This document shows, in pieces, positions 27,131 through 59,917 of a stretch of DNA of 64,000 nucleotides (position 1 is the stretch's first letter; each line of letters begins with the position of its first letter). The position numbers and the translations under genes were made by a program. The DNA comes from an uncultured Bacilli bacterium (GTDB taxonomy: Bacteria; Bacillota_I; Bacilli_A; RF39; UBA660), in contig CANRKG010000005.1 in assembly GCA_947631155.1 (NCBI GenBank), forward strand, positions 629 to 64,628, given 5' to 3'. The notes under the pieces were generated by a model. That model had not been told where the DNA came from. It saw only the letters and a program-made list of their open reading frames with translations, and did no database searches.

Positions 27131-27550
27131 ATGAATAATAAAGGTTTTACATTAGTGGAATTATTAGTTACTATGGTTTTAGTAGGAATTATTAGTGGAA
27201 TTGCTTTTCCAGCTATTTCAAAATTACGTGATCAAAATAAAGATGAAGAGTATAAAGCCTATGAAAAAATTATTTTAAATGGCGCTAAAATTTATATGGA
27301 TGATAACGTAGATATATGGCAATATACCAGAAAAGAATCAAAGGCATTAAATAAAAGCGAATGTAAAAAGCTAACCTTTTCAGATTTATCGAAATATATT
27401 AAAGCCTATAACAAAAATGGAATTGATTGTGATTCATCATATGTAATTGTTAATAAGGATAGAGACTATAATATTACTTATCAGGCAGTTGCTATTTGTA
27501 AAAAAAACAGTCAAACAGTCTATAAAACAGAAACGGAAGCTAGTTGTTAA
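27131..27550 (+). CDS. Type IV pilin/pseudopilin with class III (prepilin) signal
   Basis: MNNKG|FTLVELLVTMVLVGIISGIAFPA is a canonical G-FTLVE cleavage/methylation motif. There are four Cys in the globular part. Confidence 0.85.
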   Translation: MNNKGFTLVELLVTMVLVGIISGIAFPAISKLRDQNKDEEYKAYEKIILNGAKIYMDDNVDIWQYTRKESKALNKSECKKLTFSDLSKYIKAYNKNGIDCDSSYVIVNKDRDYNITYQAVAICKKNSQTVYKTETEASC

Positions 27551-43143: not shown

Positions 43144-43587
43144 ATGAATAAAGCTATGTTAACAGTAGGAATTATTTTATTAAGTATAATTGCCTTAGGA
43201 GTTATAAATGTAATTCAAAATTATACAACAGGTCAAGAATTAGATTATTATTTGTTAAAAGAAACTACAGAAGCAGCTATGGAAGATGCAGTGGATTTAA
43301 GTTATTATACTGAACAATCAACTATTAGAATGGATAAAGAAAAATTCGCTGAAAGTTTTATTAAAAGATTTGCTAGAAGTGTTGATGATCGTAGAAGCTA
43401 TCAAATTAGCTTCTATGATGTCAATGAAATTCCACCAAAAGCCAGTGTGGAAGTAAAATCTGCTACTAGTTATACTTTTAAGTCATCTGCTGTTGATATT
43501 ACAACAAGATTAGATATGATTGTTGAAAATAATAATAAAAAGGATCCATTAGCTTATAAACTTGCCAGTACTATAAAAGCTAGTTAA
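43144..43587 (+). CDS. N-terminally anchored small protein, TadE/pseudopilin-like (tentative)
   Basis: Short charged leader plus hydrophobic helix (MNKAMLTVGIILLSIIALGVINV), then a beta-rich domain of about 120 aa. Located directly upstream of the CpaB-like gene. Confidence 0.45.
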   Translation: MNKAMLTVGIILLSIIALGVINVIQNYTTGQELDYYLLKETTEAAMEDAVDLSYYTEQSTIRMDKEKFAESFIKRFARSVDDRRSYQISFYDVNEIPPKASVEVKSATSYTFKSSAVDITTRLDMIVENNNKKDPLAYKLASTIKAS

Positions 43588-43607
43588 ATACATGAAAGGA
43601 GAATAAA

Positions 43608-44411
43608 ATGGGTAATTTAAGTGTTGGTATTAAAAAATTTCTTTCTAATAAAAATACAGTTACAATTTTAGGTGTTGTTGCTGCTGTATTTGTATTATAT
43701 TTTGGATATAATTCTAAAGTAAATAAAGCTATTACACCGATTAAAGTTCCTTACGCTAAAGAAACTATTTCTCCAGGAGAACAAATTACTGATGATATGA
43801 TAGGAGAAAAAAATGTTTCTAGTGAAACTGTAAATGATGGTAGTGCTTATATAAATAAAAGTGAAGTTTTAGATAAATATTCAAATGCAGATACAGTTAT
43901 TCCTAAAGGAAGCTTATTTTATAAAAGAGCAGTTGTAACTAAAGAGCAATTACCTGATAAGATAATATATGATTATCCTAATGGTTATGTATTATTTAAT
44001 TTATCAGTTGATATAAATTCAACATACGGTAATTCAATTTATCCAGGAAATTATATTGATATTTACTTAAAAGCAATGAATGCTGTTGAAGAAGGACAAG
44101 AAATAACAACAACTGATAAAATTATGGTTGGTAAATTATTAGAAAATGTTGAAGTATTAGCAGTTTTGGATAGTAATGGTAATAATGTATTTGCTAATCT
44201 TGATGAAAAAGGTTCTCCTAGTATGATTATATTTGCGGTTCCTTCAGAGTATTATATATTATTAAAAAAAGCTGGTTTCTTAAGAGCTTATGATTCTACA
44301 TTAATACCAGTACCAACTGATGAGAGTTTAAAAGATAATCCAGGAGAATTAAAATTAAGTAGTAATGATTTAAAAGACTTTATTAATAGAGTAACAGAAT
44401 GGACAGAATAG
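43608..44411 (+). CDS. CpaB/RcpC-like Flp pilus assembly protein (SAF domain)
   Basis: TM anchor, SAF-like ITPIKVPYAKETISPGEQITDDMI, then GYVLFNLSVDINSTYGNSIYPGNYIDIYL and LLENVEVLAVLD, matching the CpaB pattern. Confidence 0.65.
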   Translation: MGNLSVGIKKFLSNKNTVTILGVVAAVFVLYFGYNSKVNKAITPIKVPYAKETISPGEQITDDMIGEKNVSSETVNDGSAYINKSEVLDKYSNADTVIPKGSLFYKRAVVTKEQLPDKIIYDYPNGYVLFNLSVDINSTYGNSIYPGNYIDIYLKAMNAVEEGQEITTTDKIMVGKLLENVEVLAVLDSNGNNVFANLDEKGSPSMIIFAVPSEYYILLKKAGFLRAYDSTLIPVPTDESLKDNPGELKLSSNDLKDFINRVTEWTE

Positions 44412-44439
44412 AATAAAAAGGAAGGTAGTGGGTTATTAG

Positions 44440-45753
44440 ATGAATGAAAATGTTTTTGATAAACTTGACTTTGGCCCTTTAAAGCCACTTCTTGATAATG
44501 ACGATATCACAGATATTTCATTTTGTAATGGTGGTCAAATTTGGATTCGTTCGTTAACCCAAGGATCTCAGAGAGTTGAAATTCAAGGATTAACTCCTGA
44601 GTTTATGGAAAAGTTAGCATTTCAATGTTCTAACGTTATGGGAACAACCTTTAATAATGCCAAACCTTTCTTAGATGCTGAATCCGCAGAATTACGTTTC
44701 AATTTTGTTCATCAATCGATAGCTACTAATGGGATTGCATGTGTTATTCGTAAAACTCCAGCAAAAATTAGATTAGAGAAAAATAAACTTCTAAAAGAAG
44801 ATTACTTTACAGCAGATATACATGATATTTTAATTAAATGTGTTGAAGGTCATTGCAATATAATAGTGGCTGGGGAAACTGGTTCTGGTAAAACAGAGTT
44901 TGTAAAATATTTAGCAAGTCATACTAAACAGGATGAAAAGATTATTACAATTGAAGATACACTGGAGCTTCATTTGGATAGGATTTTTCCACAGCGTGAT
45001 ATTGTGGCTATGAAAACTAATAATGTAGCTAGTTACTCAGATGTTTTGGTAACTTGTATGAGACAAAATCCAAAATGGATATTGTTGTCAGAAGTCCGTA
45101 GTGCTGAAGCAGTTAGTGCGGTTCGTAACTCAATTTCTTCAGGACACAATATTTTATCAACAATACATGCTGATAAAGCTAGCGCTATTCCATATCGTTT
45201 ATATAGTTTGATGGAAACTGATTTAGATGTTAATCAATTTTTATCTACAATTTATAGATATATTCAATTAGGTGTTCATATTAAAGCTTATTATAGTAAA
45301 GAATATGGTAAATTTCATCGTGAAGTAGATGAAGTTGTTGAATTTTACGTTGATGATGATAATGTTCCACAATCTCATACAATATATAGAAAAGTATATG
45401 GTAAACCACCTATGCAAAATAAACCTAGTGCACATTTAATAGAGTATTTAGAAAATCAAAATATTGATATAAATGCAATAACAGCTAATATGAAAGAAGG
45501 CGAACAACCTCCTAATCAAGCTTCAGCAACAAATATACCACAAGCTAATAATGTTGCAGTAGCAACCGTTCAAGCTGTAGCAAAACCAGTTCAAGCAGTT
45601 ACAAATGTTAGTGCAGTGCCAGTACAATCTGTTAATGTAAATACTGTTCAAGTACCTCCTGCGCAACAACCTAATGTGGCCAATGTTGGACAAGCTGTAC
45701 CAAATAATTTGGCAAATATCATGCCACCACCAATAAATAAAACTAATCAATAA
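44440..45753 (+). CDS. TadA/CpaF-type secretion ATPase (T2SS-E/VirB11 superfamily) with low-complexity C-terminal tail
   Basis: Walker A GETGSGKTE, Asp box ITIEDTLEL, Walker B WILLSEVRSAEA and His box SGHNILSTIHA. It is followed by two T2SS-F-like genes. Confidence 0.85.
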   Translation: MNENVFDKLDFGPLKPLLDNDDITDISFCNGGQIWIRSLTQGSQRVEIQGLTPEFMEKLAFQCSNVMGTTFNNAKPFLDAESAELRFNFVHQSIATNGIACVIRKTPAKIRLEKNKLLKEDYFTADIHDILIKCVEGHCNIIVAGETGSGKTEFVKYLASHTKQDEKIITIEDTLELHLDRIFPQRDIVAMKTNNVASYSDVLVTCMRQNPKWILLSEVRSAEAVSAVRNSISSGHNILSTIHADKASAIPYRLYSLMETDLDVNQFLSTIYRYIQLGVHIKAYYSKEYGKFHREVDEVVEFYVDDDNVPQSHTIYRKVYGKPPMQNKPSAHLIEYLENQNIDINAITANMKEGEQPPNQASATNIPQANNVAVATVQAVAKPVQAVTNVSAVPVQSVNVNTVQVPPAQQPNVANVGQAVPNNLANIMPPPINKTNQ

Positions 45754-45768
45754 AAGGGGTGAAATTAC

Positions 45769-46662
45769 ATGGAACTAATTTTATTATTACTTATAGCAGT
45801 AGTAGTAATGTTATATAGAGGCTACGAAGGTAAAGACGTAGGTAAATTTATTACTAGTCATATTGGTACTGTGTATGAAAAATTTGCCCCTTTTTCTTTC
45901 AAAGTAGTTCGCGAAAAAACTAAGCAATTAGGAAAAGAATACACTGTTAGACAATATTCAATACAGATTGTATTATTTTCTACTTTTGCAGGAGTAATTA
46001 CATATTTATATTTTTATAATATTTTAATTAGTATTGTGTATATAGTAGCGGTAATTATGGTTATTCCATATTTATCATATTTAAGGTGTAAAAGAGTATA
46101 TAGTGAATTTCTTTTTGAACAAATACAAGTATATACATCTAATACTATTATGGAATTTGCAACAACACAATCATTTGTAAAAGCAATTGAAGGAGTTAGA
46201 GACTCAGGTGTTTTAGAAGATCCAGTAAAAACAGATGTAGAGCATATGATAGAATTAGCTTATCAAAATGGTAGTATTGAAGAATCCTTAAAGTACATGA
46301 GTAATTTATATCCATATTATATAGTTAAAAATATGCATCAATTGTTTTTACAAATCACTAAAGAAGGTGCGAGAAATTCTGCTGATAGTTTGGAGAACAT
46401 GCAACAAGATATAGATATGTTAGTTGAAAGCGTTTACCGTGATAGACAAGATAGAGCAACTTTCCATAAGCAGTTTTTACAATTTGGAATCATGCTATAT
46501 TTCATGCTTATGTTAACTCAATATCTATTAGGACGTGAATCATATCTATTATTACTTGAAAAGCCAGTTATCAAAATATTATTACATGGTGCTCTTATTG
46601 TTAATAGTATCTTTCTTTTAAAAGGTGAGAAATATTATAATGAGAATGTAGGTGCTGAATAA
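45769..46662 (+). CDS. TadB-like (T2SS-F domain) inner-membrane platform protein
   Basis: TM-cytoplasmic helical domain-TM layout. Position is directly after the ATPase. Confidence 0.6.
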   Translation: MELILLLLIAVVVMLYRGYEGKDVGKFITSHIGTVYEKFAPFSFKVVREKTKQLGKEYTVRQYSIQIVLFSTFAGVITYLYFYNILISIVYIVAVIMVIPYLSYLRCKRVYSEFLFEQIQVYTSNTIMEFATTQSFVKAIEGVRDSGVLEDPVKTDVEHMIELAYQNGSIEESLKYMSNLYPYYIVKNMHQLFLQITKEGARNSADSLENMQQDIDMLVESVYRDRQDRATFHKQFLQFGIMLYFMLMLTQYLLGRESYLLLLEKPVIKILLHGALIVNSIFLLKGEKYYNENVGAE

Positions 46663-47444
46663 TGGATATAATTTTAGTTTGTGCAATTTTAATATTTATA
46701 TTATTTTATAATAAAACTGTTGACGGCAAAAAATTCTTAATCGATAATGAAAAATATTTTCAAGCTTTAAGAGAAGAAGATTATGATTTCTTATTATATG
46801 CTAAATATGGTGAGGAAGCAGAACCAGATCTTTTATTCCGAAAAAGAATAACAACCGCTTTAATTTTTGGCTTTATCTTTTTAATAATTTTTTTAAATGA
46901 AATATCTTTAATTAATATTGTGTTAGCATTAATTGTTATGTTTGGGGTTTTTAAATTTCCTTATTTACAATTGAAACAATATTATAAAGCACATTTACAT
47001 GAAATTGACATTATGTTGCCATACTATTTAAAAAGTTTAGAAATTTTAATTCAACATTATACAGTTCCAGTAGCAATTGGTAAATCAATTGATGATGCAC
47101 CGGAAATATTTAAACCAGGTTTACGACAAATTGTTGAAAGAGTTAATTCAGGTGATTCAAGTATTGATCCATATATGGAATTTTCTAACACTTATCCTGT
47201 TAGAGATTCAATGCGAATGATGAGATTACTATATCGTTTAGGAATTGGATCCCAAGAGAATAAACAAGAACGTTTAATGATGTTTTCAAGAACAGTTTCT
47301 AATTTACAAAATAAAGCCCGTGAAATTAAATATAAAGAACGTTTAGGACATATGGAAAGTCAAACTATGATTATGTTAGTTGTAACAGGTGTTGCAGTTA
47401 TGTTGATTATTCTAGTGTCAATGATGGGAATGTTTAATGTATAA
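46662..47444 (+). CDS. TadC-like (T2SS-F domain) inner-membrane platform protein
   Basis: LPYYLKSLEILIQHYTVPVAIGKSIDDAPEIFKPGLRQIVERVNSGDS fits the GspF/TadC repeat pattern. 1-nt overlap with the upstream gene. Confidence 0.65.
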   Translation: MDIILVCAILIFILFYNKTVDGKKFLIDNEKYFQALREEDYDFLLYAKYGEEAEPDLLFRKRITTALIFGFIFLIIFLNEISLINIVLALIVMFGVFKFPYLQLKQYYKAHLHEIDIMLPYYLKSLEILIQHYTVPVAIGKSIDDAPEIFKPGLRQIVERVNSGDSSIDPYMEFSNTYPVRDSMRMMRLLYRLGIGSQENKQERLMMFSRTVSNLQNKAREIKYKERLGHMESQTMIMLVVTGVAVMLIILVSMMGMFNV

Positions 47445-47468
47445 AATTAATTAAATTAACAATATATA

Positions 47469-47496
47469 TTGTAAATTTAAAAAAATTTGGTATAAT
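47469..47496 (+). promoter_or_regulatory. Internal sigma-A-like promoter ahead of the Flp-like pilin ORF
   Basis: TTGTAA, 16-nt spacer, extended -10 TGGTATAAT. Confidence 0.55.
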
Positions 47497-47532
47497 AATT
47501 ATGTAAGATAAGAAAGGATGTGTATTTAATAT

Positions 47533-47700
47533 ATGAAAGCAGCTACAGGTGAATTAAACTTAACAGTTATTACTTTAATTGCTATTGCAGCCATTGTAGG
47601 ATTCTTTTGGTTTATGTGGAATGGTAACGGAGATAGTAGTATTCAAAATAGTATTAGTAAACAATGGGAAACGATAAGTGATGATAGTAACGTTAACTAA
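47533..47700 (+). CDS. Flp-like small pilin candidate (55 aa), absent from the supplied ORF track
   Basis: My translation: MKAATGELNLTVITLIAIAAIVGFFWFMWNGNGDSSIQNSISKQWETISDDSNVN. It has a short leader ending in Gly, a hydrophobic helix and a short polar tail. An AAAGGA RBS and its own promoter lie upstream. Confidence 0.6.
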   Translation: MKAATGELNLTVITLIAIAAIVGFFWFMWNGNGDSSIQNSISKQWETISDDSNVN

Positions 47701-47722
47701 AGCAGTTAGGATGTGATTTTCT

Positions 47723-48145
47723 ATGCGTGATGCCTTTGGTGGAATCGTTAATATTACATTTATAGTTGTCTTTATGGTTATTGTAAATGGTTATTTAGCA
47801 TTTGCTGCTAATTATAATAAGGCATTTAAATATAAGAATAAAATTATTAATATTATTGAGCAAAATGAAGGCTATGATGCTAATGCATTAAAAAAAATTG
47901 ATGAATATCGTAGATCGATTGGTTATAGTCTAGATACAAATATTGAAGTTAGCGGAGCTGAATGTGTAAAAGAGGAAGGCTTTTGTTATAAGGAAGAACT
48001 AGTAGATACTTCTGGGCAATTTAGTAAAAAATACTATACTATAACAACAGCTGTTAATATTGATATGCCTATTCTTAGAAATTTTTTACCTAAAGTAAAA
48101 TTATTTCAAGTAAGTGGAACAACAAAGACAATAACTAAACATTAA
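47723..48145 (+). CDS. TadE-like pseudopilin candidate
   Basis: The N-terminus MRDAFGGIVNITFIVVFMVIVNG shares an A-x-G-(x)-[LV]N[LI]T[VF]I pattern with the Flp-like ORF. The C-terminal YYTITTAVNIDMPILRNFLP resembles TadE. Confidence 0.5.
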   Translation: MRDAFGGIVNITFIVVFMVIVNGYLAFAANYNKAFKYKNKIINIIEQNEGYDANALKKIDEYRRSIGYSLDTNIEVSGAECVKEEGFCYKEELVDTSGQFSKKYYTITTAVNIDMPILRNFLPKVKLFQVSGTTKTITKH

Positions 48146-48160
48146 AAAAGAGGTGATACT

Positions 48161-49144
48161 TTGAATGTCATAGTTGCTAACCAAAGAAAAGACTCATTGT
48201 CAAGTTTGGATATAGAAGTAATAAAGAGCATAGTAGGTGAGTTTGAAGCCGAGGAATTAGTTGCTATGTTCAAAGACTTCTTTTTTGATAGAATGATTTT
48301 AGATGTTACAGCAATTAAAAACTATCAAGAAATTTCTAATATTCAAAAATTAGCTATGGAACTTGGTGAAAGTAAATTAATATTAGTACTTCCAGATGAT
48401 GTTTGTTCTTCGTCTAGTTATTTGTCTAATATTATTTCAATGGGAATTTATAATTTTACTAATAATGTTAATGCAATTAAACAATTAGTATTAAGACCTA
48501 ATAGTTATAAAGATGTAGCTAAAATACAACAATTAAATAATGCTTCTATTGAAATTAGTAATAGAGTTAATAAAGAAAATAAAATTATTGGTATTAGAAA
48601 TATTACAGATCATGCCGGAGCAACTACTTTAACTTATATGTTAAAAAAAGAATTAACTTATATTTATGGTGGTTCAGTCTATGCTATTGAAGTTAATAAA
48701 AGAGATTTTTCATATTTTAATGAAAAAAATATGTTTTCTGTTAATGAATCAGAGTTAGCTAAAAAAATCGCTGAACTTCAACATCCCGTTGCAGTTATTA
48801 TTGATTTAAATGACTGCAAGATGGATACGATGTGTGATGATATTTTATATTTACTTGAACCTAGTACTATTATGTTAAATAAATTAATTAATAAAAATAG
48901 AAGTGTTTTTGAAAACTTAAATAATAAAAAAATTTTATTAAATAAAAGTATGCTTACAAATAAAGAAGTCAGTGAATTAGAGTATGAAGCTAATACCAAA
49001 ATGTTCTATAATATACCACCACTAGATGAAAGAAAGAAAAATTCTGTTCTTCATGAATTATTATTTCGCTTAGGATTAATAGATAATACTGGAGCAAAGA
49101 AAGAAGAAGGAAATAAGATATTTGGTATATTTAGTAGAAAATAA
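48161..49144 (+). CDS. TadZ/CpaE-like protein: receiver-like N-domain plus ParA/MinD-like domain with degenerate Walker A
   Basis: IIGIRNITDHAGATTLTYMLKKEL sits where the ParA/MinD P-loop (G-GKT) would be, with the Lys absent. TTG start after AGAGGTGA. Confidence 0.5.
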   Translation: MNVIVANQRKDSLSSLDIEVIKSIVGEFEAEELVAMFKDFFFDRMILDVTAIKNYQEISNIQKLAMELGESKLILVLPDDVCSSSSYLSNIISMGIYNFTNNVNAIKQLVLRPNSYKDVAKIQQLNNASIEISNRVNKENKIIGIRNITDHAGATTLTYMLKKELTYIYGGSVYAIEVNKRDFSYFNEKNMFSVNESELAKKIAELQHPVAVIIDLNDCKMDTMCDDILYLLEPSTIMLNKLINKNRSVFENLNNKKILLNKSMLTNKEVSELEYEANTKMFYNIPPLDERKKNSVLHELLFRLGLIDNTGAKKEEGNKIFGIFSRK

Positions 49145-49165
49145 TGTAAACATTTATATATTTTA

Positions 49166-49195
49166 TTGACATTTGTAACTAAAATAGTTTACAAT
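49166..49195 (+). promoter_or_regulatory. Internal sigma-A-like promoter ahead of the VirB2-like genes
   Basis: TTGACA, 18-nt spacer, TACAAT. Confidence 0.5.
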
Positions 49196-49220
49196 TATGG
49201 TATAGAAAGAGAGGTTAATT

Positions 49221-49580
49221 ATGGAATTATTTCAAATAGGAAAAAAACAGGTAACATTTGAGTCAGATTCTTGTAAAGGCTTAGGTCCTATTGTCAGATT
49301 AATAAAAAAAGGCTTATTCCCTATAATTCAAATTGGTATTCCAATTTTACTAATTGTTATGGGTACTATAGATTTGGGAAAGGCAGTTATTTCTAGTGAT
49401 GAAAAAGAAATTAAAGGTGCACAAAGCAAATTAATTAAACGTTGTATTTATGCAATAGTAATATTCTTTATGGTTACATTAGTTACTATTTTGATGTCAC
49501 TAGTAGGAGTGTCTAAGGATGATAATGTTAGTGAAGATCAGGCTACAAGTTGGAGTACTTGTTGGGATAGTATAAAATAA
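49221..49580 (+). CDS. VirB2/TrbC-like two-TM hairpin protein (no cleavable signal peptide)
   Basis: IPILLIVMGTIDLGKAVISSDEKEIKGAQSKLIKRCIYAIVIFF. Cys residues lie before TM1 and after TM2. Paralogue of 49678 and of the N-terminus of 14379. Confidence 0.6.
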   Translation: MELFQIGKKQVTFESDSCKGLGPIVRLIKKGLFPIIQIGIPILLIVMGTIDLGKAVISSDEKEIKGAQSKLIKRCIYAIVIFFMVTLVTILMSLVGVSKDDNVSEDQATSWSTCWDSIK

Positions 49581-49594
49581 ACAAATATATGAAT

Positions 49595-49633
49595 AAAAAA
49601 GAAATATTTGAATTGCTATTTCTTTTTTTTTTT
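49595..49633 (+). terminator. Weak A/T-rich terminator or attenuator hairpin
   Basis: aaaaaagaaata/tatttctttttt stem, 10-nt loop, long T-run. Only one G-C pair in the stem. Confidence 0.4.
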
Positions 49634-49677
49634 GCTATACTTAAAGTGATACTTTGTAAAGTAAGGAAGTGCACACT

Positions 49678-50112
49678 ATGTTTTTAAAATGTATGAAGTT
49701 CTTTCTTTTGTTTTTTGCTGTATTTACAGTGTTTTTCACTGGTGATGTAAAAGCAAAAGAATTTAATATAAATAATTATGTACAAATTGCAGAAGAATGC
49801 GATAATTCAGATCCAAATTCATGTTGTTCTATATTAGGAAACGTTGATGATGAAGATTCAGTAGCCTGGTTAGTACAGAGGTTATTAAATTATTTAAAGG
49901 TATTAGGCCCATCAATTGCCATTATTTTGGGTAGTATTGATTTTGGTAAAGCAATTATTACATCAGATGAAGAAAATATGAAAAAAGCTCAAGTAAGATT
50001 CATTAAAAGAATTATTGCAGCTGTTTGTTTATTTTTCGTGCCATTATTTACACAAATATTATTGGGATTATTTGGTATTACTAGTAGCAATGCTAGTTGT
50101 GGATTAAGTTAA
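49678..50112 (+). CDS. VirB2/TrbC-like two-TM hairpin protein with Sec signal peptide
   Basis: Signal peptide MFLKCMKFFLLFFAVFTVFFTGDVKA|KE, then NSCCSILG...IAIILGSIDFGKAIITSDEENMKKAQVRFIKRIIAAVCLFF...ASCGLS. ATG 49678 lies 8 nt after AAGGAAG. Confidence 0.65.
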   Translation: MFLKCMKFFLLFFAVFTVFFTGDVKAKEFNINNYVQIAEECDNSDPNSCCSILGNVDDEDSVAWLVQRLLNYLKVLGPSIAIILGSIDFGKAIITSDEENMKKAQVRFIKRIIAAVCLFFVPLFTQILLGLFGITSSNASCGLS

Positions 50113-50133
50113 AGAAGAAAAGAGGTGAGGCTT

Positions 50134-52203
50134 ATGTTTCAGTTAGGGTTTTCTTTAGAAAGTGATACCCAGAAACCGCATTGGTGGATGGATGTAATAA
50201 GAGCGTTTTTTGCTTTGTTTGATAAAGTTGTATATTCACTAATAATAATTATGTATGAAATTCTTTTTAATCTAGCTGATGCAACTATTATTCAGTCAGA
50301 AACTATGGTTAATTTTTATAGTAGGGTTCAATTGATTATTGGTGTTTATATGATTTTTAAAGTATCAATTTCTCTTATGCAAGCTGTTATGAATCCTGAT
50401 CAATTAACTAATAAAGATACTGGGTTGGGTAAAATTATTACGAGAATTGTTACAATGTTAGCCCTATTTGCAGCTATTATTCCTCTAAATATTCCAAATG
50501 CTGAAGAGGGTAGTTATAATGCCTATTTAAATGAGAATGGTTTATTATTTGGTGTTTTATATTCTTTACAAGCTAGAATATTAGATCAAAATGTATTAGG
50601 GAAATTGATTTTAGGAACTAAAGGTGGAACTACTTCATCCACGGCAGAGAATGGAGATGAGTTGCTGGGTGGCGATAAGTCATCAAGTGCTAGATCTTTT
50701 GCAACATTTGTTTTAAAGACATTTGTTAGAATTAATATGAAAAAAAATGCTACTGAAGAAGGTCCAGCAGATGCTTCTAATTATATGTGTAGAAATTTAT
50801 CTTCTGATGAAATAAAAAAAGTTAATACATATAAAGATGAAGCTGGAACGACATATCCAATTCAAATATTAAATAACATAAATGAGGAATGTGATTCCAA
50901 TGGTAATAATTTAGACGATAAATATTTATTTGTTTATACGCCAATTATTTCGACTATTGTAGGAGTAGTATTTATATTTGTTTTATTCGGTTTTTGTATT
51001 GATATTGCGATTAGGGCTATAAAGTTAGCTGTGCTTAGGTTATTAGCCCCAATTCCAATTCTTAGTTATATTGATCCAAAGTCTTCTAAAGATGGTTCTT
51101 TTGCAGCTTGGGTTAAAACTCTAACCTCGACATATTTAGATTTATTTTTGAGATTACTGATTATCTTCTTTGTATTGTTTTTAGTTCAAGAAGTAATAGA
51201 GCACGGTCTAGAGATACCAATTGGTACTGGAATAGTAGGAATGATATCTACAATATTTGTCTTTATTGGAATGTTCTATTTTGCAAAAATGGCACCTAAG
51301 TTTCTTAAAGACGCTCTAGGCTTAAAGGGAAATCTTAGTAATTTTGGTTTATCAGCCATGTTAGCAGGAGCAGGAGCTTTTCGTACAGGTGGTAGTTTGT
51401 ATGATGCTTTTGATGCAGGACGAACTGCTACTGATGCTCAAATTGCAGCTTATAATCAAGGAAAACAAGCTCCTGGGGTAGGACAAAGTTATACTAGTGG
51501 GCGTGATTATATGGCACAACAGCTTACTGGTGATAAAAACATGACTTATAGGCAAATGCACCGTGGTGAAAAAGCACTGGATAGAATGGGTCTAACTCCT
51601 GGTCGAGTAGATGCTGAAAAAGAAAAAATGTATGACTATATGGATGAAGCTGCTGTTATGAATTCTATTAAAGATAAAGTTAATAATAATGGTTGGTCTT
51701 CTCTTACTGATGACGAAAAGGCTAAGGTAGAAAATGCATATCGTGAAGTACATGGAATAAATCCAAATGCAGAATTAACTGCAGAACAGATTAGTGATCT
51801 GCATGCGAGAGGAGCTACAGATGCATATAATGCTGCTCAAACTAAGGCTAAGAAACAAGAAAGTAAATATAAAACTATGGATGATGAATTAACTAAACGT
51901 GGTGGAAGTAGAAATTCTTATCGTGCTAAATATGGTGATTTACAAGAAAGGCATCCTGGTGAAAGAAATACTAGATTTAGTGATTTACTTACTCATGAGG
52001 GTCGAGATGCCATTCGAACAGGTGACTTTAGAGAAACAATGCGTAATGTAGCTGCAATGCCTAGAAATGGACGTTTAGCTAGTGTTGATAAAATGAATGA
52101 AGAAATAGATGCTGCTAGGAGAGCTGATGAAGCAATGACGGCAAGAGTTAATGCTGCTACAGCACCTTTAAGAGAAAGAGAAAGAGAACAAGATAATGAT
52201 TAA
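50134..52203 (+). CDS. VirB6/TrbL-like polytopic channel protein (Tn916 Orf15/TcpH-like architecture) with long charged C-terminal tail
   Basis: About 6-8 TM segments over about 390 aa, then a hydrophilic A/R/D/E-rich tail of about 300 aa. Position is between the VirB2-like and VirB3/VirB4-like genes. Confidence 0.6.
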   Translation: MFQLGFSLESDTQKPHWWMDVIRAFFALFDKVVYSLIIIMYEILFNLADATIIQSETMVNFYSRVQLIIGVYMIFKVSISLMQAVMNPDQLTNKDTGLGKIITRIVTMLALFAAIIPLNIPNAEEGSYNAYLNENGLLFGVLYSLQARILDQNVLGKLILGTKGGTTSSTAENGDELLGGDKSSSARSFATFVLKTFVRINMKKNATEEGPADASNYMCRNLSSDEIKKVNTYKDEAGTTYPIQILNNINEECDSNGNNLDDKYLFVYTPIISTIVGVVFIFVLFGFCIDIAIRAIKLAVLRLLAPIPILSYIDPKSSKDGSFAAWVKTLTSTYLDLFLRLLIIFFVLFLVQEVIEHGLEIPIGTGIVGMISTIFVFIGMFYFAKMAPKFLKDALGLKGNLSNFGLSAMLAGAGAFRTGGSLYDAFDAGRTATDAQIAAYNQGKQAPGVGQSYTSGRDYMAQQLTGDKNMTYRQMHRGEKALDRMGLTPGRVDAEKEKMYDYMDEAAVMNSIKDKVNNNGWSSLTDDEKAKVENAYREVHGINPNAELTAEQISDLHARGATDAYNAAQTKAKKQESKYKTMDDELTKRGGSRNSYRAKYGDLQERHPGERNTRFSDLLTHEGRDAIRTGDFRETMRNVAAMPRNGRLASVDKMNEEIDAARRADEAMTARVNAATAPLREREREQDND

Positions 52204-52219
52204 GAGGGGTGTGATATAG

Positions 52220-52582
52220 ATGAATTATTTAATTCCTGCTAATACAAAAAAAGGTCAATTAATAATGGGAATATTTAGACCTTTTGATTTAATACTATTT
52301 GGTACAGGTATACTTATTACAGTCATATTTATGGCGTTATTACCTTTAACTTCTACAGCTATAACAATAATTATATTATTACCAGCAATGATTACAGGTT
52401 TTTTGGTAGTGCCTGTACCGTATTATCACAATATTTTAAATGTTATCCTAGAATTAATTGAATTTTTTACTAATCAAAGGAATTATGAATGGAAAGGTTG
52501 GTGTATTAGAATTGGCGAAAACAGTAGAAAAAGGAAGAAGATCAACAGAGGATTGGCTACCAGTACGAGCAATCCAAAATAA
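52220..52582 (+). CDS. PrgI/TcpE/VirB3-like small two-TM protein
   Basis: IPANTKKGQLIMGIFRPFDLILFG followed by two TM segments resembles the Tn916 Orf17/PrgI family. Directly precedes VirB4. The last ~100 nt overlap the next ORF. Confidence 0.6.
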   Translation: MNYLIPANTKKGQLIMGIFRPFDLILFGTGILITVIFMALLPLTSTAITIIILLPAMITGFLVVPVPYYHNILNVILELIEFFTNQRNYEWKGWCIRIGENSRKRKKINRGLATSTSNPK

Positions 52583-53066
52583 TATGATATTTACTTATGG
52601 AAATTATAAGGTCACAGGGGTGAAGATTACTCCTCGTAATATCTTTATTTTGGATGGTTCAACTCAAAATAATATCTTAATAAGTTTGAAAAATTTTTAT
52701 AATATGATTGATTTTGAATTTTGGTTAGTTGTAGCAGATAGACCTGTTGATTTATCAATTCATATGTCTCAATTGCAACTTCAACTAAATGACACCCAAG
52801 AACCAGCAATTAGAAAATTAATTTTACAAGATTTAGATAAGGATCAAATGTTTATTAGTAATAATGTAGTTGATACAGAGTATTATTTTCTATTTAAAGA
52901 AAAAAATGAGGATATTATTCAGAAAAAAATTAGATTATTAATTAATGGATTAGCTACTTGTGGGTTAAATGCAGCACAAGTTAGTAATGAAGACTTAAGA
53001 GTTGTTTTAGACAATTTCTTGAATGGGGGAAATACGACAGAATTTGGAACGGTGATGCCAGTATGA
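52485..53066 (+). CDS. VirB4-like ATPase, N-terminal domain fragment (separate ORF)
   Basis: RRSTEDWLPVRAIQNNMIFTYGNYKVTGVKITPRNIFIL matches the conserved N-terminus of Gram-positive VirB4 (Tn916 Orf16/TcpF type). The start is uncertain (ATG 52485 or TTG 52458). Confidence 0.6.
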   Translation: MNGKVGVLELAKTVEKGRRSTEDWLPVRAIQNNMIFTYGNYKVTGVKITPRNIFILDGSTQNNILISLKNFYNMIDFEFWLVVADRPVDLSIHMSQLQLQLNDTQEPAIRKLILQDLDKDQMFISNNVVDTEYYFLFKEKNEDIIQKKIRLLINGLATCGLNAAQVSNEDLRVVLDNFLNGGNTTEFGTVMPV

Positions 53067-54853
53067 GTGTAAGTTTAAGAGGTCAATTAGCCCCAAAGGG
53101 TTTAAGTTTTAATGCTAGTGATTTTTTTATCAGTGATAAGTATGCTACTATTTTATCAGTAGTATCATATCCTCGATATATTCAACCAGGTTATTTATCT
53201 ACTTTGACAAATATGTCTGGTATTAAAATTGTAGTTAAACATATTCCTGTTGAATTTTCGATGATATCTAAGATGTTAAATAAGCAAGTTGCTGATTTAA
53301 AAGATAGATATGGTAAAGAAAGAGATCAAACTGCTCGTGAAAGAATTAGACAAGACTATGAAAGCTTAGAATATTTTATTTCGATGTTAGCTGCTAGTCA
53401 AGCTCGTATCTTTGATTTTCAAATGCACATTATGATAACAGCAGATACTAAAGAAGATTTGGAAATGAAAAAGGTTAATGTTAAAAACTATTTAGATGCT
53501 ATGGAACTTAAAGCGATATCTTTACGTTTTGAGCAAGAAAAAGTTTTAAAATCTATTTTACCTATTTTCCCATCACAAGATATAGAAGAGAGAATAGGAA
53601 CACCAATTCCTTCTGTTACTATTGCAGCAATGTATCCTTTTATTTTTGATAGTATTAAGGATCCTGGTCTTTCAACATTACTTGGAGTAGATTTTTCAGG
53701 TGGAGTTATTCTATTTAATCAGTTTTTATATAAAATAAAGAAAGAGAATAATCGTAATAATGCTAATATGATTATTTTAGGTACTTCTGGTTCTGGTAAG
53801 TCAACTGCGGCAAAAGTAATGCTTAGAACTCATATAAGAAATAGATGCCAAATTGTGGCAATAGATCCTGAAAATGAGTATGAAGAAATTACTAGAACAT
53901 TTGGTGGAGATAAAGTAGATATTGGTAAAGGTGGAGAATTTGGTCTTATTAATCCTTTAGATGTAGTAATTGATGCTGATGACGAGGAAATAAAACAGGG
54001 ATTAGGTTATACTGTTTTAACTAGGACTTTACAATTTTTAAAAGCTTTTATGAAGTATTACGATCCATCTATTCCCGAAGATGTTTTAACAATGTTTAGT
54101 GAGATTGTTCAAGATACTTATAAACGTTTTGGAATTGATTTTGATACAGATTTTTCAGGTTTTACAGCAGAAGATTATCCCACATTTTCAGATGTTTATG
54201 CTACAATAAGAGGTAGACTTATGTCTATGACAGAACAAACTAATGAACGTGATATTATGGAACGTTTAGAATTAAAAGTAAGACCTATTATTAAAGAATT
54301 AAAATTTTATTTTGATGGGCATACTACTATTAATGGTAATAGTGACTTTATGGTATTTAATATTAAGGAATTAATGAATAGTGATTCTAATATTAAAAAT
54401 GCGTTATTCTTTAATGTCTTTAAATATGCATGGGGTCTATGTTTAGATCCTCGAGTTGATACAATTCTAATGGTAGATGAAGCTCATGTATTGTTAGGAG
54501 AACAAAATACTTTTGGAGCGGATTTCTTAGCTCAAGTACAAAGACGTGCTCGTAAATATAATACTGGTACAATTATTATTACTCAGCAACCTAGTGACTT
54601 TTCTGCTCCAGCTGTAATTACTCAAGGTAAAGCAATTTTTGATAATGCTTCCTATTATTTAGTAATGGGCTTAAAAAAGCAAGCAGTGGAAGATTTAAGT
54701 TTATTAATAGATTTAAATGAAAGTGAAAAAGAAAGTATAAAGCGTTATTCTCAAGGTGAGGCATTATTTGTCTGTGGAAATAGACGAATGAGAATAAATA
54801 TTTCTGTTACAAAACAAGAGTTAGATTTATTTGGTAGTGGTGGCGGCCTATAA
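53063..54853 (+). CDS. VirB4-like conjugation/T4SS ATPase, central and C-terminal ATPase part
   Basis: Walker A GTSGSGKST and Walker B ILMVDEAHVLL. The region before the P-loop is typical of VirB4. ATGA overlap with the N-terminal fragment. Confidence 0.85.
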   Translation: MSVSLRGQLAPKGLSFNASDFFISDKYATILSVVSYPRYIQPGYLSTLTNMSGIKIVVKHIPVEFSMISKMLNKQVADLKDRYGKERDQTARERIRQDYESLEYFISMLAASQARIFDFQMHIMITADTKEDLEMKKVNVKNYLDAMELKAISLRFEQEKVLKSILPIFPSQDIEERIGTPIPSVTIAAMYPFIFDSIKDPGLSTLLGVDFSGGVILFNQFLYKIKKENNRNNANMIILGTSGSGKSTAAKVMLRTHIRNRCQIVAIDPENEYEEITRTFGGDKVDIGKGGEFGLINPLDVVIDADDEEIKQGLGYTVLTRTLQFLKAFMKYYDPSIPEDVLTMFSEIVQDTYKRFGIDFDTDFSGFTAEDYPTFSDVYATIRGRLMSMTEQTNERDIMERLELKVRPIIKELKFYFDGHTTINGNSDFMVFNIKELMNSDSNIKNALFFNVFKYAWGLCLDPRVDTILMVDEAHVLLGEQNTFGADFLAQVQRRARKYNTGTIIITQQPSDFSAPAVITQGKAIFDNASYYLVMGLKKQAVEDLSLLIDLNESEKESIKRYSQGEALFVCGNRRMRINISVTKQELDLFGSGGGL

Positions 54854-54884
54854 AAAATAAATCATAGAAGTAGGTGATAGGACT

Positions 54885-56894
54885 ATGCCAATTTTTAGTA
54901 ACGAAGATAAAGATGCTAAGAAAAAAGGTCTTTCTAATGAAAATATAGATAAAGATAAAAAAAATATCTATCAAGCAGAAAAAAATGACCATAAAGCAGA
55001 AAAAAATGATTCAAAAAACAAAAATGATAAAAATAATGAATCAAATAAAAAAGCAGCAAAAACTGCTGCTAAAGGAGCTGCTAATGCTGCATTTGGACCA
55101 ATGGGTGGTAAAGCCGTTGATGCTATTTCTAAAACCAAAGCAGGAGATAAACTTTTAAATAAAGGTGGAGAATTACTAGGAAAAATTCCTGGTATATCTA
55201 AAGCTACTAAAAAATTAGATGATAGCGGAGCTTTAGATGCAGCTGATAAAGGAATGTCTGCAATGGGTGGAGGAGCAACTCCTGGAGTTGGAGCTACTAA
55301 TAATGCTGCTCAACAACAAGCTTCAACCAATGATGCGCCTGGTTTTTCAGGCTTTGGAAAAGGAAATTCTAAAAATAAAGGAGGTTTAGGTAAACCTTCT
55401 TCTTTGGATGGAGATAATTTAGAAAACCCTGATCAAATTGATAATAATGATAAACAAGGTGAAGGAGATTTTTCTGCTAATCTTTCAGGAACAGGATTTT
55501 TGCCTGGGGGAAAAAAAACATTACTCATTATTGGAGTAGTTTGTTTTATATTTTTATTTATGAGTGGTGGTATTCTTACTTCGATTGGTTCGGCAGATAA
55601 TAATGATGCTAAAAATGATATTGGAAATCCTGATAGGAAAGGTGCTAAAGGTACTAAATATGAAAGCCAAATAATAGATAATCCTAATAGTTCAGTAAAT
55701 GCAGGAGGAATTTGTACTTATGATATTAAAGGATCGACCAATGGTGTAAGTGTAACTAATTTTAATGAACAAGTTACAGATATAAAAGTTAGATTGATGC
55801 ATTCTAGTTTCTGTGATGGTACCGATAATGTTCCTATTGAAGGAGAGTCTTTAATTGATTTTGAAACTTATATTTTAGGAGTAGTTTATGCTGAAGTTGG
55901 TGGAGGTATGAATGAAGCTGAAGCTAAAACTCAAGCTATTGCGGCTAGAAGTTTTATTTTAGATCGTGCTATTAGAGGCGTCAATAAAGCTAATGGTGTA
56001 AAATTGGAAAATGAAGATGGACAGTGGGTATTACAAGTTCGAAATTGTGTTGCTGATCAAGTTTTTTGTAATCCAGATCAAGGTTGTTCTAAAAGAGGTG
56101 CTTCAGATAATCAATATCAAGATGTGTATTCAGGTATAAATAACATAATAACTTATAAGCCACCATTATCTCAAAATGCAAAATCTCGTCAATGGGTTGC
56201 AGAGACCACCGGGCAACTTCTTGTTAATAATAGTGGTTATATTGTAGGAACTAATTATGCATCTTCTAGGCAAAAAGAATGGAGAACTTGGGGTGCAATT
56301 TTAGATTATAAACAAGTCTTGTTGCAGTCTTATGGCTCTAATAAAGATATATATACAGCAAATTGCTCAGGAGGAGCAACTTCTACTGGTGATTATACTA
56401 CTTGGAAACAATATGGGGCTCCGTGGTCATCTATAACTTTAGGTAATAGTAGTGCTACTATCAATAATGCTGGTTGTTTAGCTACATCTATATCAATGTT
56501 AATTGCTAAATCTGGTGTAGCTACCTCTGTAGAAGGTGAATTTAATCCAGGTACTTTTGTTCAACAATTAAATAAGAGTGGGGGATTTGATGGAAGAGGT
56601 AATTTACAGTGGAATGTTGTTAGTAGTGCCGCTCCTAATTTTAAATATCAAGGAAAAATTAATGTTGCAAATGATTCTAGAAAAAATAAATTAGCAAGTA
56701 TTCAATCATTATTGAATTCAGGATATTATGTGGTTGCTGAAGTAAAAGGTAATACAGGACAACACTGGGTAGCTATTGATTCTGTTAATGGTGATACTGT
56801 TAATATGTTTGATCCTGCTAGTACTTCAACTAATATGTGGCAGCAATATAATTGGAAAAACACTAGTCGTTTAGCTTATTTTAAAGTAGTATAA
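54885..56894 (+). CDS. T4SS-associated cell-wall hydrolase: low-complexity N-terminus, TM, SpoIID-like domain, papain-fold Cys peptidase (C39/CHAP-like) domain
   Basis: YILGVVYAEVGGGMNEAEAKTQAIAARSFILDR (SpoIID/LytB pattern). C-terminal NNAGCLATSISML (Cys), GQHWVAIDSV (His) and MFDPAS (Asp). Confidence 0.7.
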   Translation: MPIFSNEDKDAKKKGLSNENIDKDKKNIYQAEKNDHKAEKNDSKNKNDKNNESNKKAAKTAAKGAANAAFGPMGGKAVDAISKTKAGDKLLNKGGELLGKIPGISKATKKLDDSGALDAADKGMSAMGGGATPGVGATNNAAQQQASTNDAPGFSGFGKGNSKNKGGLGKPSSLDGDNLENPDQIDNNDKQGEGDFSANLSGTGFLPGGKKTLLIIGVVCFIFLFMSGGILTSIGSADNNDAKNDIGNPDRKGAKGTKYESQIIDNPNSSVNAGGICTYDIKGSTNGVSVTNFNEQVTDIKVRLMHSSFCDGTDNVPIEGESLIDFETYILGVVYAEVGGGMNEAEAKTQAIAARSFILDRAIRGVNKANGVKLENEDGQWVLQVRNCVADQVFCNPDQGCSKRGASDNQYQDVYSGINNIITYKPPLSQNAKSRQWVAETTGQLLVNNSGYIVGTNYASSRQKEWRTWGAILDYKQVLLQSYGSNKDIYTANCSGGATSTGDYTTWKQYGAPWSSITLGNSSATINNAGCLATSISMLIAKSGVATSVEGEFNPGTFVQQLNKSGGFDGRGNLQWNVVSSAAPNFKYQGKINVANDSRKNKLASIQSLLNSGYYVVAEVKGNTGQHWVAIDSVNGDTVNMFDPASTSTNMWQQYNWKNTSRLAYFKVV

Positions 56895-56907
56895 AATGGA
56901 GGTTTAT

Positions 56908-57690
56908 ATGAAAAAATCCAACAAATCAATTATAATTTTTATAGTTTTATTAATTGTTCTTTCAACTATTTTTATGTTAACTATTGGAGTTAAGTTAATA
57001 AAAGATAATAAAAATAAAGATGTAATTATTGTAGGTAATGAGGCTATTTTTGAAAAACAAGATAATAAATGGGTTAATGTTTCATTTGCAAAGATAAATA
57101 ACTATAATTGGAAAAAATATTATACTTATATCGATAATCAATATTATGGCTATTATAGTTTATATAATAATGAAAAATGGTATTTATTTAAAGATAAAAA
57201 TCAAGCTGTTAATTATAATGGTGATTTATTAGCTTTAAATGGTGAGACTAGATATAAGGTTGTACAATTTAATTTACATGATATTGAAAATAAAGATTAT
57301 ATAACAAAAGTATTAAATGATAATAATATAAAAGATCACTCAGAACTTTCTAGTAGTTCTGTTGTATATGTTGATATAGATAATGATGGTGAAAAAGAGC
57401 CAATTTATACTATTAGTAACAAATTTTCTATGGAAGATGTTGGTAATACATATTTTAGTTTTATTTTTATGGTAAAGAATGATAAAATTATTTATTTATA
57501 TAAAAAATTAGAAAAAGATTTGGATAGTTCTTATAGTGGTTGTAAGCCATATATCAATAGTATTTTAGATGTAGATGAAGATGATCAATATGAAATTATT
57601 TTAAGTTGTGGATATTATAGTAATAATGGAATTAGACATAGCTTATATAAATTTAAAGAAGGTGTGTTTAAATTACTTGTTTCTAACTAG
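56908..57690 (+). CDS. Hypothetical membrane-anchored extracytoplasmic protein
   Basis: TM segment IIIFIVLLIVLSTIFMLTIGV. Two D-x-D-x-D-G/E-like acidic loops (DIDNDGEKEP, LDVDEDDQYE). ATG 56908 lies 5 nt after GGAGG. Confidence 0.55.
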   Translation: MKKSNKSIIIFIVLLIVLSTIFMLTIGVKLIKDNKNKDVIIVGNEAIFEKQDNKWVNVSFAKINNYNWKKYYTYIDNQYYGYYSLYNNEKWYLFKDKNQAVNYNGDLLALNGETRYKVVQFNLHDIENKDYITKVLNDNNIKDHSELSSSSVVYVDIDNDGEKEPIYTISNKFSMEDVGNTYFSFIFMVKNDKIIYLYKKLEKDLDSSYSGCKPYINSILDVDEDDQYEIILSCGYYSNNGIRHSLYKFKEGVFKLLVSN

Positions 57691-57731
57691 CTTTAAGTGA
57701 TATAATAAAAAAGAAAGAGAGAAGGTATTTT

Positions 57732-59894: not shown

Positions 59895-59917
59895 TTATAA
59901 AAGAAAGAGGTATTTAT

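Follow-up and report, generated by a model that had tools for sequence, protein, structure and literature searches.

A candidate pilin-like filament subunit of 55 residues encoded beside a chromosomal T4SS in uncultured gut Bacilli

Described Filament Systems and the Cluster in the Window

In classical Gram-negative Tad loci the flp gene stands first, and on IncI plasmids such as R64 a thin (type IVb) pilus supports the T4SS in mating. Gram-positive Tad loci are laid out differently. Their Flp proteins have 50-80 aa and a short polar tail, and are encoded, with tandem pilin paralogs, after two membrane-protein genes that follow the gene for a CpaF-type ATPase; larger pseudopilin-like genes come next, and the prepilin peptidase gene lies elsewhere (PMC13091076). 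The order in Bifidobacterium is tadZ-A-B-C-flp-tadE-tadF, with tadV elsewhere (PMC13091076). Tad-like machinery has also been described in uncultured gut Firmicutes, where it was recognised mainly by context or structure: a Tad-like cluster of TANB77, an uncultured gut clade of the Clostridia, encodes pilin-like proteins of 143-237 aa (PMC11680825), and DUF5411 was reported together with CpaF and PilC/GspF in predicted operons of gut Firmicutes (PMC9523054). In these cases the pilin candidates have promoters of their own and no sequence homology to known pilins, and DUF5411 is a companion. They are the nearest published cases to the locus described here; our literature search found no description of the protein family that is its subject or of the cluster that encodes it.

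We analysed a stretch of 64,000 nucleotides (hereafter the window) from contig CANRKG010000005.1 of an uncultured Bacilli bacterium (assembly GCA_947631155.1). A first-pass annotation, made from the letters of the window, had singled out an unlisted ORF of 55 codons (hereafter the small gene) as the best candidate for the major subunit of a fibre. The window is chromosomal DNA from a genome of 1.48 Mb with 26% GC that is 96% complete, and the small gene lies in a co-directional cluster that spans ~35.7 to 61.2 kb (Table 1). This cluster begins with genes for a sortase, a 1114-aa secreted protein, a DUF5411 protein, a CpaB/RcpC-like protein and a T2SSE ATPase; its middle part encodes two polytopic proteins of 297 and 260 aa, the small protein, a 140-residue protein that we call p140 and a 327-aa protein; and it ends with two T4SS_pilin-like genes followed by genes for TrbL/VirB6, a split VirB4, a SpoIID-like hydrolase and a VirD4-type coupling protein. 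No relaxase was identified in the sequence scanned.

Table 1. Positions of the small gene, its upstream signals and selected neighbours in the window.
Feature	Position	Strand	Basis or remark
DUF5411 protein, N-terminal TM helix, leader MNKAMLTVG	43144-43587	+	Pfam DUF5411 2e-48
CpaB/RcpC-like protein	43608-44411	+	TIGR03177 E=1.8e-7 and Pfam RcpC E=2.2e-5, both under curated cut-offs
Type IV filament ATPase, CpaF/FlaI clade	44440-45753	+	Pfam T2SSE 1.3e-27
297-aa polytopic membrane protein, TadB position, putative platform	45769-46662	+	Synteny, topology
260-aa polytopic membrane protein, TadC position, putative platform	46662-47444	+	Synteny, topology
Sigma-70-type promoter with extended -10, inside operon, TTGTAA-16-TGgTATAAT	47469-47496	+	10/12 match, TG extension present
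Shine-Dalgarno sequence AAGAAAGGATGTG	47510-47522	+	Read from sequence
Small gene, 55-aa pilin-like candidate prepilin	47533-47700	+	Homologs, codon statistics, conserved signal
Leader MKAATG, codons 1-6	47533-47550	+	Part of small gene
Glu-led hydrophobic helix ELNLTVITLIAIAAIVGFFWFMW, codons 7-29	47551-47619	+	Part of small gene
Variable polar tail, codons 30-55	47620-47697	+	Part of small gene
p140, 140 aa, leader MRDAFG, candidate minor pilin	47723-48145	+	Leader statistics, AF2 layout
VirB2-like T4SS pilin genes (PF18895-like), separate ORFs	49221-50112		
VirD4-type coupling protein	57732-59894		

Among solved structures, archaeal FlaI (3e-19) and CpaF (6e-19) are the closest to the ATPase, followed by VirB11 (6e-14), and the protein is as near to archaeal FlaI as to CpaF. 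The 297-aa and 260-aa proteins resemble TadB and TadC in size and rough topology, and are weakly similar to each other (hhalign E=0.0019, probability 14%). Neither gave a T2SSF, TadB or TadC signal in Pfam (E<=10) or with PDB profiles, hhalign comparison with the lineage's own PilC T2SSF protein returned a probability of ~1%, and their homologs are all unnamed and without Pfam domains. In public contigs and in the genomes of many genera the order DUF5411, CpaB, ATPase, 300 aa, 261 aa, small gene, p140, 327 aa, T4SS recurs, the small gene and p140 each being present in one or two copies, and the small gene follows the ATPase and two membrane-protein genes in 11/13 and 9/10 inspected loci. The first-pass statement that the small ORF sits exactly where flp lies in Tad loci is correct for Gram-positive loci (PMC13091076) and does not apply to the classical Gram-negative ones.

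The likeness to Gram-positive Tad loci is incomplete. Here the putative TadB and TadC proteins have no detectable T2SSF signal, the module and a T4SS cluster are fused, and the small protein differs from Gram-positive Flp in having no G/xxxxEY motif, Glu at +1 instead of +5 and a leader of only 6 residues. As on R64, a type IV filament system is genetically linked to a conjugation-type T4SS; however, R64 is a plasmid of diderm bacteria with canonical type IVb pilins, whereas the present locus is chromosomal, vertically kept and found in a monoderm host. The TANB77 proteins, in turn, have no sequence relation to the small-protein family, and the accessible portions of those reports describe no linkage to a T4SS (PMC11680825, PMC9523054).

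The Small Gene and Its Upstream Signals

The small ORF is present on the forward strand with a translation, MKAATGELNLTVITLIAIAAIVGFFWFMWNGNGDSSIQNSISKQWETISDDSNVN, identical to that given in the first-pass annotation, and its ATG start is unambiguous because an in-frame TAA stands one codon before it. Among 5.8 billion proteins searched, homologs of similar length form 975 clusters, and a profile of the family matched 516 representatives at 50% identity (E<=0.001) in a search of 1.84 billion representatives. Most of these homologs are unnamed, the few with names being called 'hypothetical protein' and, in one JGI record, YajC, and none contains a Pfam domain. Pairwise comparison of the first 29 codons among 11 loci gave 499 synonymous against 157 non-synonymous codon differences, and residues that are themselves invariant are specified by two or three alternative codons. 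The 55-aa ORF is therefore a real gene under purifying selection. The first-pass annotation had named conservation of the reading frame, of the leader Gly and of the N-x-T motif in related genomes as the check on its proposal, and all three proved to be almost invariant across several hundred homologs. A length under the usual annotation cut-off and a majority of nameless homologs might be expected of a chance ORF within an AT-rich intergenic spacer, but that reading, to which we give virtually no weight, is already refuted by the 975 homolog clusters and the strong synonymous excess, by conservation of the ribosome binding site and promoter, and by a position that is conserved across >60 genera.

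The Shine-Dalgarno sequence matches at 12 of its 13 bases the sequence AGAAAGGAGGTGA, which we take from the anti-SD to be the extended consensus, and ends 10 nt before the ATG. Among the 8 consensus matches of the surrounding region the promoter ranks first; in this 26% GC region 8 promoter-like matches were observed and 8.3 are expected, a number not above chance. Upstream of the orthologous gene, however, TGnTATA[AC]T is found in 10/11 independent loci, the sequence of the eleventh being cut off, and AGAAAGGA is kept in at least 10/11. The promoter is thus credible because it is conserved among loci and not because of the match count. The first-pass reading that the small ORF has both a ribosome binding site and its own extended -10 promoter stands, and both are conserved across loci. 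No terminator was found downstream of the small gene.

Features of the Small Protein, p140 and the DUF5411 Protein

The layout proposed in the first-pass annotation, a leader ending in Gly followed by a hydrophobic helix of about 22 aa and a short polar tail, was found, and its leader and helix are conserved in the homologs. The N-terminus M-K-x-A-x-G-E-x-N-x-T and the helix are nearly invariant: among 262 trimmed members, Met1 is present in 260, Lys2 in 259, Ala4 in 262, Gly6 in 260, Glu7 in 261 (the exception being an Asp), Thr11 in 262 and Thr14 in 259, and Asn9 is present in 235 and replaced mostly by Ser or Gln in the others. Beyond Thr14 come ~15 more hydrophobic residues; the hydrophobic stretch measures ~22. 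The Gly is residue 6 in 243/268 members and residue 10 in 16 of the other 25, the latter being consistent with a start-codon call at an upstream MYVL; on the rare occasions when Gly6 is replaced, the substitute is Ala, Ser or Glu. In one variant (P0208) the leader is 45 aa long and its closing KKSG aligns exactly with AATG. As in class III signals, then, a short basic leader ends in Gly (rarely Ala or Ser) and is followed by ~20 hydrophobic residues.

The family falls into three subfamilies. The first, to which the window's protein belongs, has the form MKAATGELNLT…GFFWxMWP with a short acidic tail and no Cys; the second, usually encoded by two tandem genes, has the form MKEATGELNMT…FFYAFVWP with a Cys-rich tail of 40-70 residues; and the third has the form MKEAAGEAN[LM]T…IG…TP… with the tail CC…GG.W..G.C. 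Where tails contain Cys, its number is even in 56/60, which argues for disulfides and hence for an extracytoplasmic tail. Tandem paralogs of the small gene are common. When the same genome pairs are compared, residues 1-20 of the small protein are 70-100% identical and the remainder 11-57%, with the ATPase at 59-83% and p140 at 28-51%. Type IV pilins are marked by an invariant N-terminal helix together with an exposed C-terminus that evolves fast, and the small protein has this distribution of conservation. An AF2 model (pLDDT 78) predicts a helix at 10-30, a loop and a second helix at 37-53; Foldseek found no match to it in the PDB, and a PDB profile search with the family returned chance TM matches only.

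The first-pass annotation had also held that the protein is neither a canonical Flp nor a pilin of the G/FTLxE type carried by the orphan pilin at 27131, and HMM and motif tests agree, all being below cut-off or negative. No curated pilin HMM (Pfam, NCBIfam) matched any of the three subfamilies at threshold. Flp_Fap (PF04964) and Flp1_like (PF16982) matched neither the window's protein, even at E<=10, nor 31 members at E<=1, nor the third subfamily; genome-wide, canonical Flp, Flp1-like or TadE proteins are absent above cut-off, and no other Flp-sized candidate was found. The G/xxxxE[YF] motif is absent, Gly6 being followed by E-L-N-L-T-V with Glu at +1 in 261/262 members and no E[YF] at +5/+6. 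The Glu at +5 and the N_methyl domain (PF07963) are likewise absent from the small protein, which has Thr at +5, and the canonical pilin at 27131 matches PF07963 at 9e-9. To our knowledge, no pilin with Glu at +1 has a precedent. The model for class III signals (TIGR04205) gave E=0.0027 and 17.7 bits against a cut-off of 65, and Pilin_N (PF07790), the most frequent weak match (6/31 members), gave 14.3 bits against a cut-off of 25.2 (E ~0.05-0.3). We did not accept the mixed sub-threshold matches to Pilin_N, the class III signal, archaeal flagellin, GspG and TraA as proof of membership, nor those to FeoB_associated and LrgB, which are sub-threshold and compositional. The two-helix hairpin of VirB2-like pilins (PF18895) gave no match, and the small protein has a single TM helix. 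P0158, alone among the members in having a canonical Flp leader (NNKG/QTLVEY), was rejected as a bridge to Flp, since its source is one contig of 729 bp that has 0.59x coverage and may be chimeric. E-L-N-L-T also matches the bacterial N-glycosylation sequon D/E-x-N-x-S/T, a match that we treat as coincidence because STT3/PglB is absent from the genome.

Archaeal type IV pilins likewise have a short basic leader that ends in Gly or Ala, with ~20 hydrophobic residues next, and the archaeal PF04021 motif has Q, S and E at +1, +3 and +5, where the small protein has the polar residues E, N and T. The archaeal pilin and class III signal models are the sole pilin models with weak matches here, all of them under threshold. 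The host, however, is a bacterium, and its prepilin peptidase is of the PilD type with a zinc finger and not of the FlaK/PibD type. The type IVa/Com pilins of the same genome (for example at 27131-27550) also have a basic leader of 5-8 residues ending in Gly and a hydrophobic N-terminal helix, and would share the single peptidase with the small protein. G14 and P22 are helix positions in type IVa pilins, and in one small-protein subfamily the helix has Gly and Pro 8 apart, with the same spacing. In contrast to these pilins, the small protein has no F/M at +1, no E5, no N_methyl match and almost no globular domain.

The first-pass annotation had noticed a pattern common to the small ORF and the next one (p140) and proposed a common signal. 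Part of that pattern holds: M-[KR]-x-[AS]-x-G is found in both families. The other part, N-[LI]-T-[VF]-I, does not, since N-x-[ST] occurs in only 3/57 p140 homologs, and N-x-T therefore lies outside the shared signal. In 57 diverse members (20-46% identity) the p140 leader is M-[RK]-[EDQ]-[AS]-x-G, with Gly6 in 56/57, followed by a hydrophobic helix. A genome-wide scan of start codons for a basic leader, Gly and 22 hydrophobic residues retrieved the small gene together with canonical pilins, the latter with KG/FT[LI]xE at four or five loci, and across the genome the 6-residue leader M-[KR]-x-A-x-G was found only in the small gene and p140. The AF2 model of p140 (pLDDT 77, pTM 0.64), with helices at 2-48 and 53-66 and a sheet of 4-5 strands, has the predicted layout of pilins and pseudopilins; Foldseek gave no significant match to the PDB and no pilin (best E=0.53), and we therefore claim no pilin fold for p140. 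The DUF5411 protein, in relatives of which the leader is MKE[ST]xWG, is possibly a further pilin-like component. Homology between it and p140 was considered and rejected, as their comparison gave only 2.5% probability.

A Proposed T4SS-Linked Filament and Competing Readings

Among 151 genomes of the order, the small-gene profile was found in 111, the ATPase in 127 and VirB4 in 142, and every genome with the small gene also has the ATPase (111/111). Ten of the 16 genomes that have the ATPase and are negative for the profile were inspected; in nine of them a member of the third subfamily occupies the corresponding position, and in the tenth the contig ends before that position is reached. The T4SS occurs without the filament module in 18 genomes and the module without the T4SS in 3 of 127, an imbalance that makes the module look accessory to the T4SS. 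The genome contains one Peptidase_A24 gene, on a contig other than that of the cluster (G000:C2:91079-91402) and directly after a gene for a PilC-like T2SSF protein; its product is PilD-type, has a zinc-finger region at the N-terminus and contains both Asp motifs (SDL, GGGD). A dedicated peptidase inside the cluster was rejected, as A24-like motifs are absent from all of the cluster's membrane proteins. A24 was detected in 149/151 genomes of the order, with or without the filament module, and so its presence is non-discriminating; two genomes (G097 and G023, both ~95% complete) have the small ORF and no detectable A24.

Taken together, we consider it probable that the small protein serves as a pilin-like subunit in a filament of the Tad/archaeal type, that its class III-like signal is non-canonical and is cut by PilD, and that p140 proteins are minor pilins. 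The filament module would consist of the CpaB-like protein, the CpaF/FlaI-type ATPase, the two membrane proteins, the small protein, one or two p140 proteins and the 327-aa protein; it lies directly upstream of the chromosomal T4SS and travels with it within a single family of gut Bacilli with small genomes. The small protein would insert into the membrane with its basic 6-residue leader in the cytoplasm and its tail outside, and the sole A24 peptidase (the PilD-type enzyme encoded beside PilC) would cut after Gly6, so that the Glu becomes residue +1. ATPase and membrane platform would then extract the subunit and polymerise it through the invariant hydrophobic helix, the hypervariable, often disulfide-bonded tail would point outward, and p140 proteins, which have the same leader, would serve to prime or cap the filament. 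The small protein is probably the main subunit, and the role of the filament is most likely cell contact that supports the T4SS. We infer cleavage and its site, polymerisation, major-subunit status and filament role, and all of these are predictions.

The pilin claim is not firm, because there is no Glu5, no HMM or fold match and no proven platform protein. These same points are what the main rival, which we judge unlikely, would lead one to expect, namely that the small protein is an uncleaved single-pass component of the type IV filament or T4SS envelope apparatus that binds the polytopic proteins through its helix, serves in assembly, alignment or anchoring and forms no fibre. Tight protein-protein contact within the membrane would also make a TM helix extremely conserved, and rare variants such as P0243 have long N-terminal extensions and no MK..G leader. 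One would not expect a machine part, however, to have a dedicated, strong and conserved promoter inside the operon, frequent tandem duplication, a hypervariable external tail of the disulfide type, or an invariant Gly6 that is common to a second family of pilin-like layout. Because of the conserved promoter, the tandem duplication, the tail and the leader shared with p140, we favour a polymerising, surface-exposed subunit.

Next in rank, and distinctly unlikely in our estimation, is that the small protein is pilin-like but minor or priming, in a filament whose bulk is formed by p140, the DUF5411 protein or the VirB2-like T4SS pilins. Both p140 and the DUF5411 protein also have a short leader and a TM N-terminus, the globular part of p140 is fuller, and the T4SS_pilin genes lie just downstream. 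Against this, a conserved promoter of its own is present only at the small gene; the product has the size of an Flp, and the gene's place ahead of larger pseudopilin-like genes is that of flp in Gram-positive Tad loci; no segment of the module is more conserved than the small protein's helix, a trait shared with major pilins; and p140 has no acidic residue at positions 7-18 in 57/57 members, the lack of an acidic residue near the N-terminus being a feature of tip or minor pilins. We regard as highly improbable that the small protein is the precursor of a secreted or membrane-active peptide (bacteriocin-like, signalling or exclusion) exported by the neighbouring machinery, although its small size, the Cys-rich variable tails of two subfamilies and the Peptidase_C39_2 domain of the SpoIID-like protein in homologous clusters would suit such a role: double-glycine leaders typically have 15-30 residues and the leader here has 6, conservation is greatest in a TM helix of 22 residues, which would stay in the product, the short-tail subfamily of the window has no Cys, and linkage to the pilus-type ATPase is strict.

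If the small protein is a pilin, as we favour, then the definition of class III signals widens to include Glu at +1 and lack of Glu5, and rule-based pilin finders would need to be changed. A bolder proposal, which we advance tentatively and think rather unlikely, is that the 6-residue M-K-x-A-x-G leader, the Glu at +1 and an invariant N-x-T make up a new class of signal, either processed in trans by the cell's general PilD or left unprocessed, on the subunit of a Tad/archaeal-type pilus that has turned into an integral accessory, inherited vertically, of a monoderm T4SS; if true, this would give Gram-positive-type secretion a 'mating' or contact pilus in reduced-genome gut Bacilli, which may depend on contact with other cells. 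The data suggest that a type IV filament is coupled, physically as well as in evolution, to a monoderm T4SS, and so bear on cell contact or DNA exchange by uncultured, auxotrophic, small-genome gut Bacilli. Genes as short as 55 codons are routinely dropped by annotation, and Pfam has no member of the small-protein family or of three neighbouring gene families; for these reasons databases do not show an apparatus that ~84% of the genomes sampled from a common gut lineage contain. The tails, hypervariable and rich in disulfides, are candidates for use as strain markers or surface antigens. The small-gene family is nearly confined to one family-level lineage, being present in 26/34 of its sampled genomes and in 1/~265 elsewhere in the class, and the organism names on homologs of the small protein are Bacilli bacterium, Mycoplasmatota and Candidatus Faecimonas.

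Distribution and components of the filament module and T4SS

Across the 151 genomes of the order, the filament module and the T4SS differ in how widely they occur. VirB4 is present in 142 of these genomes, against 127 for the CpaF/FlaI-type ATPase, and a comparison of handles across the same set gave 18 genomes with a T4SS but no filament module and only three with the reverse arrangement. The entire apparatus (window 43144-61219, and as compared across the other genomes of the order, G001-G150) looks vertically inherited and chromosomally located; no integrase or relaxase was seen among the ORFs scanned. The T4SS block ends with a VirD4/TraG-type coupling protein, and its presence suggests a system for transfer of DNA or another substrate, beyond mere adhesion. 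SpoIID is the sole domain detected in the protein encoded at window 54885-56894; its SpoIID-like counterparts in homologous clusters, likewise encoded downstream of VirB4 (locus L002, 16168 onward), have a Peptidase_C39_2 domain in addition.

Variation of the small gene and its surroundings

The invariant E-L-N-L-T of the small protein (window 47551-47565) fits the bacterial N-glycosylation sequon D/E-x-N-x-S/T, but a genome search found no STT3/PglB homolog and the match is probably coincidental. In one family member (L031, ENA contig NODE_134582, 729 bp) a canonical Flp-type leader, MRLKLNNKG/QTLVEY, stands in place of the first 14 residues; because coverage of this contig is very low, the sequence could be either chimeric or a rare, naturally occurring hybrid. 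Two further subfamilies (L018-L021, e.g. L019:8296-8862, and L054-L063) have Cys-rich tails, and the small gene and p140, the candidate minor pilin gene, are both often tandemly duplicated (two plus two), the second copies frequently ending in C-x-[FWY]-K-G. The otherwise tight module is interrupted by 2-2.7 kb of unassigned DNA in two genomes (L025 and L061). In genome G066, an additional, isolated copy of the small gene is found some 15 kb away from the module, beside an oppositely oriented 559-aa sortase-like gene.

Locations of features in the window, homologous loci and source genome (G000)
Feature	Location	Remarks
VirD4/TraG-type coupling protein	window 57732-59894	T4SS-DNA_transf, 8e-57
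Insertion	L025:5620-8329	between TadC-like gene and small gene
Insertion	L061:3820-5933	between small gene and p140
Isolated small-gene copy	L027:8330-8605 (G066:C1)	MKDATGELSMT…, 91 aa, Cys-rich
Canonical type IV pilin-like genes	G000:C2:46445, C6:31478, C8:54596, C14:18659; window 27131-27550	

A classical pilus or Com system in the same genome

In the source genome, at least five genes code for canonical type IV pilin-like proteins with the G/F[TA][LI]xE motif (139-720 aa), and a PilC-PilD locus is also present. The filament module studied here thus shares the genome with a second system, a type IV pilus or Com system of the classical kind.
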